A stretch of 64,000 bases of DNA from Amphiscolops sp. MND2022. Taxonomy: Eukaryota. This document shows positions 14,887 to 33,576 of the stretch, piece by piece (position 1 is the first letter of the stretch; each line of letters begins with the position of its first letter). A program made the position numbers and the translations under genes. The notes under the pieces are model-generated. The model was not told the origin of the DNA, did not search any database, and saw nothing but the letters and a program-made list of their open reading frames with translations. The DNA is taken from positions 87,730,001-87,794,000 of the forward strand of contig OZ076411.1 of assembly GCA_964187785.1 (NCBI GenBank), read 5' to 3'.

Positions 14887-16946
14887 TGTGAAGTGCGTGT
14901 AGGTTGATTGTTTGATAAGAAAAATTATAAGTCTCATAAGTCTCAATTTTGGTCTATGTTACGAGTTCTTTCTTGTTTTAAATTTCAAAGTAGTCTAGTA
15001 CTTAAAATTTTCGCGACTGTGCCTTCCTACACTTCAACAAAGGTCGTCTCAGGTGTGAGTTCGAAAGGAAGGACTTTATTTCTACGACCCGGGAGAAAAG
15101 AATGATTTGGTCCAGGAATATGTAAATTGAACCTTTCTTTATTTATATTAAAATTGTTACAAATGTCACTTATACAAAAACAGAGTGCACAAATCAAACT
15201 AAATGAAAAGAATATAACTAAATCTGGTTTAATATCAATCGTTAAAAGATAATGGTTAAGTTACTGAGAGAAGGAATTATTAAGTTTAATAAGTTATTTT
15301 TCAGTTTTTACCAAGTCAGAGGTTAAGCCTCTTTTCTAAAGTGCAGCAAATAGCTAACACGGTGTTTATAGTCCACCGATTGTCACGGACTGGGAAAGAT
15401 AGCGGATTGCTATTCTTTTATTAAAGGACAACAGATTGTTGTACTGGTTTTATAGAGTGCTATACGGCTACTCTTTGTCTCAATTTGAGAACTGTTCGAC
15501 TTGAAGAGTCAAACAAAAGCTAAGTTATTTAAGTCTCTTATGACCCAGCTGAGGCTGTGGTGCTTAGTTTAGAGTCAGTGAGTATCACCAGACTTTGGTT
15601 TAGAGTCCACTGTAAAGCATAGACTATTCAATCTTTGTTGAACAAAGACGGTATAATAGCTTCTGTGTGAAGTCAAAAGTCAACTGAAACTCCAACATAA
15701 GAGAATGATTGCTCTAACTTGAGAGCACAACTTGAAATTGTTTTGGCTCGAGAATAGTGACTGAAAATAATCTAAGATAAAATTGCTTCAACCTGGAAGC
15801 AGTGCTCGAAATCGTCTAAGACAAAATTGCTTTAACGAGAAAGCAGGCTTGACAAAAGTCTAAGATAGAATTGCTTTAGCTTGAAAGCAGGGTTGAAAAT
15901 CGTCTAAGATAAAATTGCTTTAACTAGAAAGCAGGCTTGACAAAAGTCTAAGATAGAGTTGCTTTAGCTTGAAAGCAGGGTTGAAAATCGTCTAAGATAA
16001 AATTGCTTTAACTAGAAAGCAGGCTTGACAAAAGTCTAAGATAGAATTGCTTTAGCTTGAAAGCAGGGTTGAAAATCGTCTAAGATAAAATTGCTTTAAC
16101 TAGAAAGCAGGCTTGACAAAAGTCTAAGATAGAATTGCTTTAGCTTGAAAGCAGGGTTGAAAATTGTCTAAGATAAAATTGAGCCAAGACTTGTAAAAAT
16201 TTAAAGGTTACTGATTTGAGTTTAAGTTAAGAAAAGGTCTTAGACAAAATTTAGGTTTAAGCAAAAACACTAAGTTAAATTAAGTTAAAGTTAAAGTTAA
16301 GAAAAGATCTTAGAAAAATGAAAGTGAAAGCTCCAAAAGAAAGTTGAAAGGTTTTAACTAAGAGATACTGCGCTGCACTGATGGTGGGGATTGAACCCAA
16401 GAAGAAGAAGTTGAGAAGAAGAGTGTCCGGGTTTATCGATTTAGTGAAATTGCAAAAGAAGAGCTCTGAGAGGTGAAATTTTGGCACGTATTTATACTAA
16501 ATTCGCTCGCTTCGTCAACCAATAAAATTCAATCATAGTTGTGATTGGCTGACGAGTATGTCGTCATATGTCGTCATGTCATATGACCATTCAAACGAGA
16601 GCGTTTTGTATGTGTTATTCGCAGGCGTAGCGTCTACGACAAAATGATGTCATTTGACGTCATGTGGTTTGACCATATAAGGAATGTGTAGTGTCGCTTC
16701 AACAGAGCGAGTGAACATATCCAGACGTGTTCACAATTCAGAGTTGAAAGGGGGAATTAATAGAGATAAAACTACACAAGTTGCGAAAGATAAAATTAAA
16801 CATCACAAATTCTGAGTTTATGTAATTCGGAGTTGGACGGGGAAATGATAAAGATAAAGTTACACAAGTTTCGAAAGATAAAATTAAACATCACAAGTTC
16901 TGAGTTAATTTCCGTTTATTTCTTTTGCCATATGTCGCACACGACA
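14887..16946 (-). repeat. 3' LTR of element 2
   Basis: Direct repeat of 31520-33576; TATAAATA (minus) at 16489-16496. Confidence 0.97.
15771..16181. repeat. 44-bp tandem array inside LTR (9 units plus partial, alternating 88-bp dimer)
   Basis: TCTAAGA recurs every 44 bp from 15771 to 16167; same array in the 5' LTR near 32404-32814. Confidence 0.95.
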
Positions 16947-17003
16947 TCTCACCCGGGTTTCAATGTTGCAGAAAATGTAACGGGGGTACCAGGTTGTTGA
17001 TAT

Positions 17004-17541
17004 TCATGTTGGTTCTTCCAGGTTGACTTCGATGAACATCATATCATTCAAAATGAATGGGGAATTACTTTTGAAGAGTTGGCTGTGTGGAATTACGAAG
17101 GGGAAGCATATACTCGGATTTCCATAACTTGTACAGGGTCGTATAAAACAGGCTGACTTTTCATTGTCCTTTGGATCTATTATTTTGGTAAATGTTTCTC
17201 CAGGTTCGCTCAGGTTGATTACATTGATACGGAAGATAAGTTTGAAAGGCCAAGGAAGGATTGGGTCGAATTCACCAGGAAGGATGTTGATCACTAGTGA
17301 AGCACTTTCTCCAGTTGCAGGAGGGCATCCATAAGGGTATAGTTTCATATCGAAACGGTATCCATGGGTTGAGGTGTAGAATGGAGGGCAAGGTAATTTG
17401 GGATGAGGGTCGATGTCTTTCTGTCTTTTTTTGTTCAGCGGCCTTTGCATTATCAAACATAAGGCTGAAGGGGCTAATTCTCCAGATTAGTTTTTTATCT
17501 CTTCCGCAATCAATGCTTTTAATACGGTCGTGAAGATCCAT
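17004..17541 (-). pseudogene. TRAF-type MATH domain ORF (frameshift in T7 run 17426-17432)
   Basis: KLIWRI ... CPPFYTSTHGYRFDMKLYPYG ... GEFDPILPWPF ... FIRP ... FILNDMMFIEV match hallmark TRAF-C motifs; removing one base joins ORFs 17272..17541 and 17004..17456 (178 aa). Confidence 0.88.
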
Positions 17542-17984
17542 TGTCAGGCTTTTGAGTGGTTTTAATTCAGCAAGTCGTCTTTGTGTATCTGTTGATTCGG
17601 GCTCGGTTGAAGAAGGGGTAGTAGAAGGGGTATTTACAGGTTGTTAAACAGTAATCGTTTTGGTTTCCTTCTCGTTGATGATGGTTTGAAGGGTTTGAAC
17701 GACAATTTGGAGTTGCTGAATGCTTATGTCTTGTTGTCTTCGTAGCTTCCTTTCGTGCTCAAGTTGTTCGAATAGGTTTGCAACTTGTAACTGTGTTGCA
17801 TGTAGATATTGAGCATTTTTGAGGTACTGATTGGGAATTTACTAACGAGCATTTTTATCTGGGCGAGTTCATCGTTAGTGCATGTGGGCTGGCTGAGATT
17901 TGTTATTTGATTTTGTAGTGTTGTAATTTCGTTTTCTATAGCGGCTAATCTAAGGTTGAATTCCTCTAATAATTGTTTTTTCAT
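17542..17984 (-). pseudogene. Coiled-coil region probably once fused to the MATH domain
   Basis: LEEFNLRLAAIENEITTLQNQI; after a shift at T5 (17816-17820) LFEQLEHERKLRRQQDISIQQLQIVVQTL runs in the MATH frame with one TAA at 17644-17646. Confidence 0.6.
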
Positions 17985-18157
17985 TTTGTTTTCAAATAAA
18001 AGCAGAGATATCCCGAAGGGGTACTGATAGTCTCTGATTTTTAAGGGTAGTATTTTTGATAGTAAATTCCTGTCTTTTTGAGTCCCAAAATATTATTTTT
18101 CACTGGTTGACGTCTTCTCTGAGAGTATAATTGAGATTGTAGTGGAATCTGGGGTTT

Positions 18158-31294: not shown

Positions 31295-31498
31295 TCTCAG
31301 ATTTGTGATAGTTTGTGTCTTCTTGTGATTGAAGTTCTCTTAGTTAAGGTATAGATGAATAATATTCTGCAATTGAGTTTTCAATAGCAAAATTGAAAGT
31401 GAGTGCACAAAGACAAGTGACAAGGGTGATGAACACGAGAAAGATTCCAGCAATGGGTAGATAGTCCGGGTCTTCAGGAGTTATCATGAAATGAGTTT

Positions 31499-31516
31499 GC
31501 CTCACTGGTCGCACCA
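31499..31516 (-). promoter_or_regulatory. Primer-binding site of element 2
   Basis: TGGTGCGACCAGTGAGGC, 3 nt from the LTR; resembles tRNA-Ile(UAU) complement (inferred). Confidence 0.7.
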
Positions 31517-31519
31517 GTT

Positions 31520-33576
31520 TGTGAAGTGCGTGTAGGTTGATTGTTTGATAAGAAAAATTATAAGTCTCATAAGTCTCAATTTTGGTCTATGTTACGAGTT
31601 CCTTCTTGTTTTAAATCTCAAAGTAGTCTAGTACTTAAAATTTTTGCGACTGTGCCTTCCTACACTTCAACAAAGGTCGTCTCCGGTGTGAGTTCGAAAG
31701 GAAGGACTTTATTTCTACGACCCGGGAGAAAAGAATGATTTGGTCCAGGAATATGTAAATTGAACCTTTCTTTATTTATATTAAAATTGTTACAAATGTC
31801 ACTTATACAAAAACAGAGTGCACAAATCAAACTAAATGAAAAGAATATAACTAAATCTGGTTTAATATCAATCGTTAAAAGATAATGGTTAAGTTACTGA
31901 TTGAAGGAATTATTAAGTTTAATAAGTTATTTTTCAGTTTTTACCAAGTCAGAGGTTAAGCCTCTTTTCTAAAGTGCAGCAAATAGCTAACACGGTGTTT
32001 ATAGTCCACCGATTGTCACGGACTGGGAAAGATAGCGGATTGCTATTCTTTTATTAAAGGACAACAGATTGTTGTACTGGTTTTATAGAGTGCTATACGG
32101 CTACTCTTTGTCTCAATTTGAGAACTGTTCGACTTGAAAAGTCAAACAAAAGCTAAGTTATTTAAGTCTCTTATGACCCAGCTGAGGCTCTGGTGCTTAG
32201 TTTAGAGTCAGTGAGTATCACCAGACTTTGGTTTAGAGTCCACTGTAAAGCATAGACTATTCAATCTTTGTTGAACAAAGACGGTATAATAGCTTCTGTG
32301 TGAAGTCAAAAGTCAACTGAAACTCCAACATAAGAGAATGATTGCTCTAACTTGAGAGCACAACTTGAAATTGTTTTGGCTCGAGAATAGTGACTGAAAA
32401 TAATCTAAGATAAAATTGGTTCAACCTGGAAGCAGTGCTCGAAATCGTCTAAAACAAAATTGCTTTAACGAGAAAGCAGGCTTGACAAAAGTCTAAGGTA
32501 GAATTGCTTTAGCTTGAAAGCAGGGTTGGAAATCGTCTAAGATAAAATTGCTTTAACTAGAAAGCAGGCTTGACAAAAGTCTAAGATAGAGTTGCTTTAG
32601 CTTGAAAGCAGGGTTGAAAATCGTCTAAGATAAAATTGCTTTAACTAGAAAGCAGGCTTGACAAAAGTCTAAGATAGAATTGCTTTAGCTTGAAAGCAGG
32701 GTTGAAAATCGTCTAAGATAAAATTGCTTTAACTAGAAAGCAGGCTTGACAAAAGTCTAAGATAGAATTGCTTTAGCTTGAAAGCAGGGTTGAAAATTGT
32801 CTAAGATAAAATTGAGCCAAGACTTGTAAAAATTTAAAGGTTACTGATTTGAGTTTAAGTTAAGAAAAGGTCTTAGACAAAATTTAGGTTTAAGCAAAAA
32901 CACTAAGTTAAATTAAGTTAAAGTTAAAGTTAAGAAAAGATCTTAGAAAAATGAAAGTGAAAGCTCCAAAAGAAAGTTGAAAGGTTTTAACTAACAGATA
33001 CTGCGCTGCACTGATGGTGGGGATTGAACCCAAGAGGAAGAAGTTGAGAAGAAGAGTGTCCGGGTTTATCGATTTAGTGAAATTGCAAAAGAAGAGCTCT
33101 GAGAGGTGAAGTTTTGGCCCGTATTTATACTAAATTCGCTCGCTTCGTCAACCAATAAAATTCAATCACAGTTGTGATTGGCTGACGAGTATGTCGTCAT
33201 ATGTCGTCATGTCATATGACCATTCAAACGAGAGCGTTTTGTATGTTATTCGCAGGCGTAGCGTCTACGACAAAATGATGTCATTTGACGTCATGTGGTT
33301 TGACCATATAAGGAATGTGTAGTGTCGCTTCAACAGAGCGAGTGAACATATCCGGACGTGTTCACAATTCAGAGTTGAAAGGGGGAAATAATAGAGATAA
33401 AACTACACAAGTTGTGAAAGTAAAATTAAACATCACAAATTCTGAGTTTATGTAATTCGGAGTTGGACGGGGAAATGATAAAGATAAAGTTACACAAGTT
33501 TCGAAAGATAAAATTAAACATCACAAGTTCTGAGTTAATTTCCGTTTATTTCTTTTGCCATATGTCGCACACGACA
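31520..33576 (-). repeat. 5' LTR of element 2
   Basis: Direct repeat of 14887-16946; TATAAATA at 33122-33129. Confidence 0.97.

Follow-up and report, generated by a model that had tools for sequence, protein, structure and literature searches.

We analysed a 64,000-nucleotide (nt) stretch of the genome of Amphiscolops sp. MND2022 (assembly GCA_964187785.1, contig OZ076411.1, positions 87,730,001 to 87,794,000), hereafter called the window, and found on its minus strand an 18.7-kb Ty3/Gypsy element at positions 14887-33576 that carries a suite of accessory genes. The element is bounded by two long terminal repeats (LTRs) of the form TG...CA, a 5' LTR of 2057 nt (31520-33576) and a 3' LTR of 2060 nt (14887-16946), both on the minus strand. 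The LTRs agreed at 2037 of 2057 aligned columns (99.0%), with 20 mismatches and 3 gap bases in 2 insertion/deletion (indel) events. A 4-bp target site duplication (TSD), CTAT, was observed at 33577-33580 on the 5' side of the element and at 14883-14886 on the 3' side. An LTR identity of about 99% and a TSD had been claimed in an initial annotation, and both were confirmed by these counts. The primer-binding site (PBS; 31499-31516, minus strand) begins 3 bases inward of the 5' LTR boundary and pairs at 18 of 18 positions with the 3' end of the host tRNA-Met(CAU), being the complement of the last 15 nt plus CCA of a tRNA-Met(CAU) gene from the same genome; by its sequence features, this tRNA is presumably of the elongator type. 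The polypurine tract before the 3' LTR is weak (16947-16954, minus strand; 7 purines in 8 nt). With TG...CA LTRs, a TSD, a tRNA primer site and a pol order of protease (PR), reverse transcriptase (RT), RNase H (RH) and integrase (IN), the element is a Ty3/Gypsy LTR retrotransposon (Metaviridae). Each LTR also contains a tandem array with a 44/88-nt period (15761-16181 and 32404-32814), and a separate 88-nt dimer lies near the LTR start; these are possible enhancer repeats.

The order of genes reported in the initial annotation was found again on the minus strand: gag, PR, Macro, RT, RH, IN, an antisense open reading frame (ORF), small ORFs, a repeat array, env, a further small ORF, and a gene encoding a coiled coil and a MATH domain. 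The gag frame (30062-31297, minus strand) is uninterrupted and encodes 411 amino acids (aa) with a Retrotrans_gag domain (Pfam, 1e-5) and one CCHC knuckle. It overlaps pol by about 50 nt, and the overlap holds a single TTTAAAC heptamer (30068-30074, minus strand) with a moderately stable hairpin downstream (z -2.2 against 300 mononucleotide shuffles). A slippery heptamer followed by a hairpin is the usual signal for -1 frameshifting, and this heptamer is, by its sequence, a likely -1 frameshift site.

The pol gene (24562-30116, minus strand) encodes PR (about 29700-29969), a macrodomain (Macro; 28764-29186), RT, RH (about 27132-27527) and IN (about 25096-26229). It contains one stop and three frame changes in the window copy and is an open frame of about 1,853 aa in other copies. 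Pfam recognised PR, RT, RH and IN in the order typical of Gypsy, with RT_RNaseH_2 at 9e-26 and rve at 9e-14, and the best PDB match of a natural relative, P0180, was the yeast Ty3 Gag-Pol (E 7e-55), ahead of foamy virus and murine leukemia virus RT. The Macro lies between PR and RT, with a stop inside it in the window copy. Its Pfam score was only 0.0055, but its second half matched human TARG1/OARD1 at 1e-16, and for the whole Macro of P0180 the best match in the structure bank was TARG1/OARD1 (C6orf130; E 8e-24). The residues at the positions of TARG1 Lys84 and Asp125 are kept. In TARG1, Lys84 and residue 125 form the catalytic dyad, which acts on modified proteins and on nucleic-acid ends (PMC7050489); residue 125 is written as Glu in that article and is Asp in the PDB sequence. 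The search for related Pol proteins gave 55 matches among 854 candidates, and 14 Pol proteins with more than 120 aligned Macro residues were compared. The results indicated that identity to P0180 falls to 29-49% in the Macro where the RT keeps 68-87%, and that the Lys84 position is Lys in all 14 proteins and position 125 acidic in 13. A loss of catalysis in divergent Macros, suggested by a motif count, was rejected when the alignment showed that the Lys and the acid were kept. Sequence kinship and the Lys84/acid-125 pair mark the domain as a putative TARG1/ALC1-like macrodomain, which is alike to TARG1/OARD1 in these respects and differs from it in being fused inside Pol. The Macro is probably an active hydrolase. 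The macrodomains of RNA viruses are MacroD-type, and gypsy polyproteins of other animals may carry a database-annotated Poa1p/TARG1-like domain elsewhere in pol.

The env gene (18481-20616, minus strand) lies about 3.9 kb beyond pol, separated from it by five ORFs, and encodes 711 aa in other copies. The window sequence matched Monjiviricetes_fusion, the chuvirus/gB-type fusion family (Pfam, 1e-10 and 3e-23), and a natural 711-aa copy matched PF24664 at 1e-39. The predicted protein has an N-terminal hydrophobic signal, 16 Cys, 5 sequons and a C-terminal transmembrane (TM) segment; no R-x-K/R-R cleavage site was found in the 711-aa natural copy. In encoding, after pol, a predicted chuvirus/gB-type Env with a signal, an ectodomain and a TM segment, the element agrees with the HSV/gB-type errantiviruses. 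The host genome holds at least four size classes of chuvirus/gB-type env, with open frames of about 712, 718-731, 821 and 938-952 aa.

The last gene before the 3' LTR (17004-17984, minus strand) encodes a coiled coil and a TRAF-type MATH domain in 325-330 aa in other copies and is split into three frames in the window copy. It matched TRAF-mep_MATH in Pfam (5e-20) and 28 TRAF chains at E <0.01 (best 1e-14), and TRAF3 (8zuk) aligned with the protein over residues 10-322. No RING and no zinc fingers were found in the natural copies of 325-330 aa, unlike TRAF2-6. The ORF has no introns, and the host genome has an intron-bearing zinc-finger TRAF gene. Nine MATH relatives were obtained among 203 candidates, all at least 80% identical. 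Within the TRAF ORF, the ratio of nonsynonymous to synonymous change (pN/pS) was 0.12 in the MATH domain, 0.21 in the coiled coil and 0.37 in the linker. In cellular TRAFs, TRAF-N trimerises and TRAF-C binds receptor tails, and TRAF1 is without a RING and zinc fingers (PMC9406534).

Four sense ORFs on the minus strand are conserved between pol and the array, not the five small ORFs reported earlier, and a fifth of about 80 aa was present in only 3 of 10 loci. The four are o71 (22908-23123; 71 aa, no known family), o117 (22559-22907; 117 aa, 88 aa in the window copy), its paralogue o106 (22233-22553; 106 aa) and their distant paralogue o132 (21713-22099; 128 aa here and 132-134 aa elsewhere). 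A further small ORF, o153 (17992-18454, minus strand; split here), follows env and has an acidic N-terminus and a basic middle. Membership of o71 or o153 in the o106 family was rejected (profile comparison probability 0.1). Relatives of the small-ORF family numbered 72 among 1,698 candidates, none of them named and none with a Pfam match. When profiles of env, o153 and o106 were run against PDB sequences, no match had an E below 0.08. The predicted o106 model (pLDDT 71, from an alignment of 6 rows) suggested four strands, a helix and a strand; its fold search gave a best Z of 5.0 among 48,161 chains, which indicates neither a new fold nor kinship, and it had no viral match at E 0.001. In the ESM Atlas, o106 fell in unnamed clusters only, and o153 had no usable match. 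Among viral contigs searched for relatives, 0 of 287 and 0 of 72 stretches were confirmed.

The array (20900-21634, minus strand) consists of five units of about 146 nt with the core CTCTGCCG. In the family of the window element only, this core is followed by TATAAA. The array of a sister family in the same genome, L030, has 14 unit cores and no TATAAA form, so the unit core and not the TATA box is the conserved feature, and the earlier description of a TATA-repeat array was not upheld. Structured RNA in the units was not supported, as only 1 of 5 units had a z below -2. Strong tracts resembling 3' splice sites were found at 21634 (array head), 21173 (inside the array) and 20805 (189 nt before env), and these three are the strongest acceptor-like of 175 sites. 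The env tract had matches in 18 of 24 copies, the array tract in 17 of 24. For 16947-24560, no source of RNA was listed. Eight AATAAA motifs and several acceptor-like sites lie between pol and env.

The antisense ORF (23998-24237, plus strand) encodes 79 aa. It was present at all 24 places in the genome from which copies were collected, in three types, W (6 places), M (7) and G (11), which are only 20-35% alike and whose distribution departs from the env tree. Synonymous sites were saturated even within types, with pN/pS of 0.14-0.43. Env sequences that differ by only about 1% can carry either M or G, and M is found as well in the distant clade that is otherwise of type W; these positions show that the ORF has been swapped as a cassette. 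Its predicted model was poor (pTM 0.42). Antisense ORFs are known in plant Retand elements (PMC11963269).

The window copy is defective, as had been reported. In pol, an in-frame stop lies at 29034-29036 and the frame shifts near 28485, 27870-27790 and 26505; env has a stop at 20251-20253; and o117, o153 and the coiled-coil+MATH ORF are all split. By our own arithmetic, about 0.5% change per LTR together with the 2 LTR indels leads one to expect a few stops and frame changes in 14.6 kb, and plain decay after insertion is enough to account for these defects.

The genome searched comprised 1.07 Gb, and the genome-wide counts are lower bounds drawn from the best-scoring candidates. Its introns, its zinc-finger TRAF gene and its numerous PARP domains are those of an animal. 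A search with the cargo region gave, as the best 20 of 547 candidates, copies at 85-100% identity. From the best 20 of 639 candidates in a pol-region search, we took the 19 copies besides the window copy and inspected 10 kb downstream of each. All 19 copies hold o71, an o106/o117-type ORF, o132, env, o153 and the TRAF ORF; loss of the cargo from other copies was thus not seen in this set. Together with the single LTR pair and its TSD, this result bears out the earlier statement that the cargo is integral to the element. Recent activity of the family, also proposed earlier, was supported by 46 of the 150 Macro matches listed, which fall within pol frames 1,800 aa or more in length; most of the 101 gag matches listed had no stop. 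Among the matches listed, 83 of 150 for Macro were followed by a same-strand MATH match at a distance of 9-14 kb and none was preceded by one, 44 of 68 for env had MATH 0.8-3 kb downstream, and 120 of 150 for MATH were tied to a Macro or env match.

Selection was assessed at the 24 distinct places, where full-length ORFs were found for o71 at 23, o117 at 16, o106 at 19, o132 at 17, o153 at 19 and TRAF at 13. With one pair per ORF, pN/pS was 0.14 for o71, 0.27 for o117, 0.22 for o106, 0.24 for o132, 0.07 for env, 0.18 for o153 and 0.17 for TRAF, indicating purifying selection on the cargo ORFs. A synonymous excess was observed in every tested ORF (binomial p 4e-3 to 2e-71), and third positions dominate the changes. 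As a control, four of the five other frames gave 0.55-6.3, and the reverse frame, which shares third positions, gave 0.18-0.37. Pooled pN/pS was 0.06-0.20 at a synonymous divergence (dS) of at least 0.15 (o117 had no such distant pairs) and 0.20-0.49 for closer pairs, ratios that are descriptive only because the sequence pairs are not independent; the higher values in closer pairs are in keeping with dilution of the signal by drift after insertion. These tests showed that all the accessory ORFs are selected as proteins, and we hold with high confidence that the accessory genes are real and functional. It is extremely improbable that the cargo is neutral, hitch-hiking host DNA or an artefact of assembly or nesting. 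The broken state of most ORFs in the window copy would fit such an origin, but the same cargo in the same order at 24 places, purifying selection in every ORF, the conservation of the cargo in a sister family and the one LTR pair with its TSD speak against it, and the survey of 19 copies and the selection tests refuted it.

The history of the cargo was examined in related elements. The sister family L030 has an env 59% identical to that of the window family, groups with it on the env tree and carries the cargo genes in another order. It has an o71 homologue (40%), two o106-type ORFs, an o153 homologue (39%), a 250-aa coiled-coil+MATH protein about 28-31% identical to that of the window family, and two short antisense ORFs, one of them a weak match to type G; its repeat array has moved upstream. 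A simpler relative, L038, came from another sample, with 5 loci among 234 stretches, and has an RT 75% identical to that of P0180 and an env 41% identical. It has gag, a pol without Macro, env and three downstream ORFs without MATH, and none of the small ORFs. The three downstream ORFs, at 9741-12095 of L038, are a 92-aa ORF and, one on each side of it, two similar ORFs of 290-338 aa that end in coiled coils; none of the three reached the cut-off of a Pfam family. An o153 homologue follows env in a further relative, L037 (E 2e-5). The match of o153 to the 290-aa ORF of L038 was weak (E 0.03 pairwise; no tblastn match at 0.01), so only the L037 homologue was counted. By these comparisons, o153 appears as the oldest accessory gene. 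On an RT tree of 28 rows, made up of 4 outgroups and those among 56 proteins whose RT match was long and whose N-terminal state was known, 14 of 15 Macro bearers fell in one clade (support 99), and the presence of Macro required 2 changes against 9.5 when shuffled. A wider tree of 47 rows placed the whole lineage on a long branch (support 100), the nearest outside matches being at most 33% identical; both were quick trees without bootstrap. The cargo was gained, since in L038 an env is present while Macro, TRAF and the small ORFs are all missing, and the simplest reading is that a gag-pol-env-o153 ancestor came first and that Macro, TRAF and the small ORFs were then acquired.

Based on these results, we propose that the window holds a decayed member of an env-bearing Ty3/Gypsy family that has amplified recently, one similar to the 'ancient errantiviruses' and made complex by a counter-defence cargo; we consider this reading evenly balanced against the others taken together. 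Gag-Pol would be produced by a -1 frameshift in a tRNA-Met-primed element, and env and the downstream ORFs would be expressed from spliced or internally started RNAs, which are proposed because the acceptor-like tracts and the repeat array lie ahead of them. Env would act as a class III-type fusogen for spread between cells. The TARG1-like domain would be carried in the particle within Pol and may strip ADP-ribose laid by host PARPs off particle proteins or nucleic-acid ends. The host genome gave 32 PARP-domain matches among 41 candidates, a possible expanded immune set; those on C4, C7, C8 and C13 include many single open frames of 900-2,100 aa, some of them paired or clustered. The RING-less TRAF would occupy receptor tails or host TRAF trimers and pass no ubiquitin signal, and such a decoy may damp Toll/TNF-type or death signalling. 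Dominant-negative TRAF2 mutants reportedly lack the RING. These mutants inhibit NF-kB (PMC9406534). The antisense ORF could be a swappable specificity module under diversifying pressure.

The anti-immunity toolkit suggested in the initial annotation fared only partly well. Two of the eight accessory products, the Macro and the TRAF-like protein, belong to recognisable families, but both could serve the element's own cycle, and the chances that they act mainly against host defence appear about equal to the chances that they do not. Several observations, in addition to the non-independence of sequence pairs noted above, weigh against the proposed reading. The MATH domain is only about 30% like vertebrate TRAFs and has the motifs SACF and NPSICFP where these have SSSF and NIASGCP, positions that we take to lie around the receptor groove. 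No host donor of the MATH domain was found, the host TRAF gene sequence that was examined ending before the MATH exons. The Macro variants P0179, P0188, P0191 and P0202 are without the HCIS and GCGLD motifs, and P0202 is also without the acid. In 8 of 24 copies there is one NCPxKIT paralogue (o117/o106) and not two, several being hybrids of both. The best 7 of the 175 acceptor-like sites include none directly before o117, o106, o132 or the TRAF ORF. Nine related Pol proteins have no Macro, and two env size classes (about 821 and 938-952 aa) had no adjoining MATH among the matches listed (0 of 4 and 0 of 11), so that neither Macro nor MATH is needed for spread. Full-length env was found in only 6 of 24 copies. 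Moreover, a TRAF protein of a fish virus promotes apoptosis rather than blocking signalling (PMC3352826).

A less probable but substantial alternative is that the element uses its accessory genes to manage a complex life cycle of its own and not as weapons in an immune conflict. In this case, o153 or the o106 family would act on the array in the manner of Rev, Tat or CERV, for export or transactivation; the TRAF-like protein would switch on host signalling or keep the cell alive to drive the LTR; and the Macro would clear ADP-ribose laid by DNA-repair PARPs at intermediates of reverse transcription and integration. The standing of o153 as the oldest cargo gene, its basic patch, and the retention of the array core between families that differ in gene order are consistent with such roles, as is the function of TARG1 in the DNA-damage response (PMC7050489). 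The eight AATAAA motifs and the acceptor-like sites between pol and env suggest that full-length RNA needs protection, and in Caenorhabditis elegans Cer1 needs CERV to export its unspliced RNA (PMC10309623). On the other hand, L038 replicates without most of these genes, and the fast divergence of the Macro with a kept dyad, the gain and loss of paralogues and the swapped antisense types look like host conflict.

The broken env copies could also mean that Env is no longer infectious, that the element spreads inside germ cells, and that env and the cargo are kept, for example, to interfere with related elements; the polymorphic antisense ORF would then be a self/non-self or exclusion tag. We regard this as unlikely. 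It would account for env being interrupted in 18 of 24 copies and for the missing R-x-K/R-R site, and the env size classes in one genome would be a setting for competition. Against this, env is the most constrained cargo gene, and its signal, its cysteines and its TM anchor are all retained; no other cargo ORF is as long, and the most hits after insertion would therefore be expected in env; and a furin site is not always kept in gB-type errantivirus Env proteins (PMC13524379).

The boldest form of the counter-defence reading is tentative, and we judge it possible but short of probable. In it, an invertebrate Metaviridae lineage has independently reached the complexity of lentiviruses and foamy viruses, as a gB-type enveloped virus with eight accessory products: a particle-borne TARG1-like eraser directed at host PARPs that have themselves expanded, a TRAF that acts as a decoy, small proteins of no known family whose number grows and shrinks, and a polymorphic antisense cassette exchanged in a continuing arms race. 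If true, this would mean that an invertebrate holds its retroelements in check through PARPs and TRAFs. The cargo of a virus points to the defences that it has met, and a TARG1-like domain fixed in Pol with its catalytic pair intact, like a RING-less TRAF retained by two families, suggests that retroelements in an invertebrate come under pressure from ADP-ribosylation and TRAF signalling. The usual account of retroelement defence in invertebrates is piRNA silencing. The family also shows how, starting from a simple gag-pol-env relative, cargo was added step by step. For annotation, most MATH matches in this genome are element-borne (120 of the 150 listed) and would inflate a count of TRAF genes.

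Other features were noted in the window and the genome. A second, simple Gypsy-type element on the minus strand (3727-9780) has an uninterrupted 1,774-aa PR-RT-RH-IN frame (4218-9542) and flanking 125-nt direct repeats that are 100% identical and whose called ends show neither a clear TSD nor TG...CA. An inverted partial solo LTR of a related subfamily lies at 37987-39514, 4.4 kb from the 18.7-kb element (88% over 959 nt and 75% over 800 nt). A decayed Gypsy-like element contains a tandem duplication at 47512-52132 (period 2,308 nt, 97-100% identical), which is either a recent duplication or an assembly artefact, and an integrase zinc finger at 53739-54311. Minisatellites were found at 40727-41037 (20 nt), 42751-42933 (21 nt) and 43529-43744 (14 nt). 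At G000:C12, about 35.59-35.67 Mb, tRNA-Met-like units recur roughly every 220 nt in a large tandem cluster that accounts for most of 441 pattern matches; one unit was confirmed as tRNA-Met.

The initial annotation did not recognise the combination of features as one already described. The literature search found no description of the combination, nor of a macrodomain or TARG1-like domain in an LTR element, with Repbase, GyDB, Dfam and most subscription journals outside the search. The parts do have precedents in gB-type env (PMC13524379) and in the MATH_TRAF_C, coiled coil and env of Burro (PMC6431247), so the claim stands for the combination and not for its parts. What is unusual here is the selected eight-product cargo, the fast-drifting but catalytically conserved Macro and the swapped antisense cassette.

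Ty3/gypsy elements with a gB-type env have been described as widespread among invertebrates (Chary and Hayashi 2026, PMC13524379). The HSV/gB-type 'ancient errantiviruses' of that study share with the window element a Ty3/gypsy pol, the gag-pol-env order, a chuvirus/gB-like env, recent multicopy expansion and an invertebrate host; the words Macro, TRAF and accessory are missing from its text. Acoel terms gave 0 matches in the text and supplements, and that phylum is not in the sampling list. The first filters of that survey capped the POL-ENV gap at 1,000 nt and the total length at 10 kb, with later manual steps covering 3-5 kb downstream of pol. Elements such as the present one could escape it, because such filters favour short pol-env gaps and the gap here is about 3.9 kb with five ORFs; we suggest that surveys requiring short gaps miss the most complex errantiviruses.

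Burro/GYPSM1 of planarians shares giant size, a gypsy-like nature, env homology, a coiled coil (as an Smc motif) and the placing of an additional enzyme between PR and RT, and in Dugesia tigrina MATH_TRAF_C is an accessory ORF, as the MATH domain is here; Burro was proposed to meddle with host apoptosis and ubiquitin systems (PMC6431247). Burro exceeds 30 kb and fuses gag, env and pol, in that order, into a single polyprotein of about 4,900 aa, whereas the window element has separate ORFs with env after pol. Its env is described as gypsy-Env/paramyxovirus-like and not gB-type, and its PR-RT insert is a dUTPase, accompanied by BIR, BCL2 and ankyrin domains, where the window element has a TARG1-like Macro (PMC6431247). 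No Pfam match to BIR, BCL2, ankyrin or dUTPase was found in 21 frames of the element (E 0.1) or in 14 related Pol proteins. Compared by description, the window element departs from the defining layout of Burro and resembles it in strategy. Cer1 of C. elegans is likewise an LTR retrotransposon with a novel accessory protein, CERV, made from spliced RNA; Cer1 has this one protein with a demonstrated export role, whereas the window element, likened to it by description, has a suite (PMC10309623). In orchids, a Ty3/Gypsy element with an AlkB demethylase carries a fixed 'eraser' that was read as a response to host surveillance (PMC9289625), and LTR elements of bdelloid rotifers with dUTPase and ORF3 enzymes illustrate enzyme capture by Gypsy lineages (PMC5408684). 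The orchid and bdelloid elements involve other enzymes and hosts and carry one extra ORF each, whereas the window element carries a suite.

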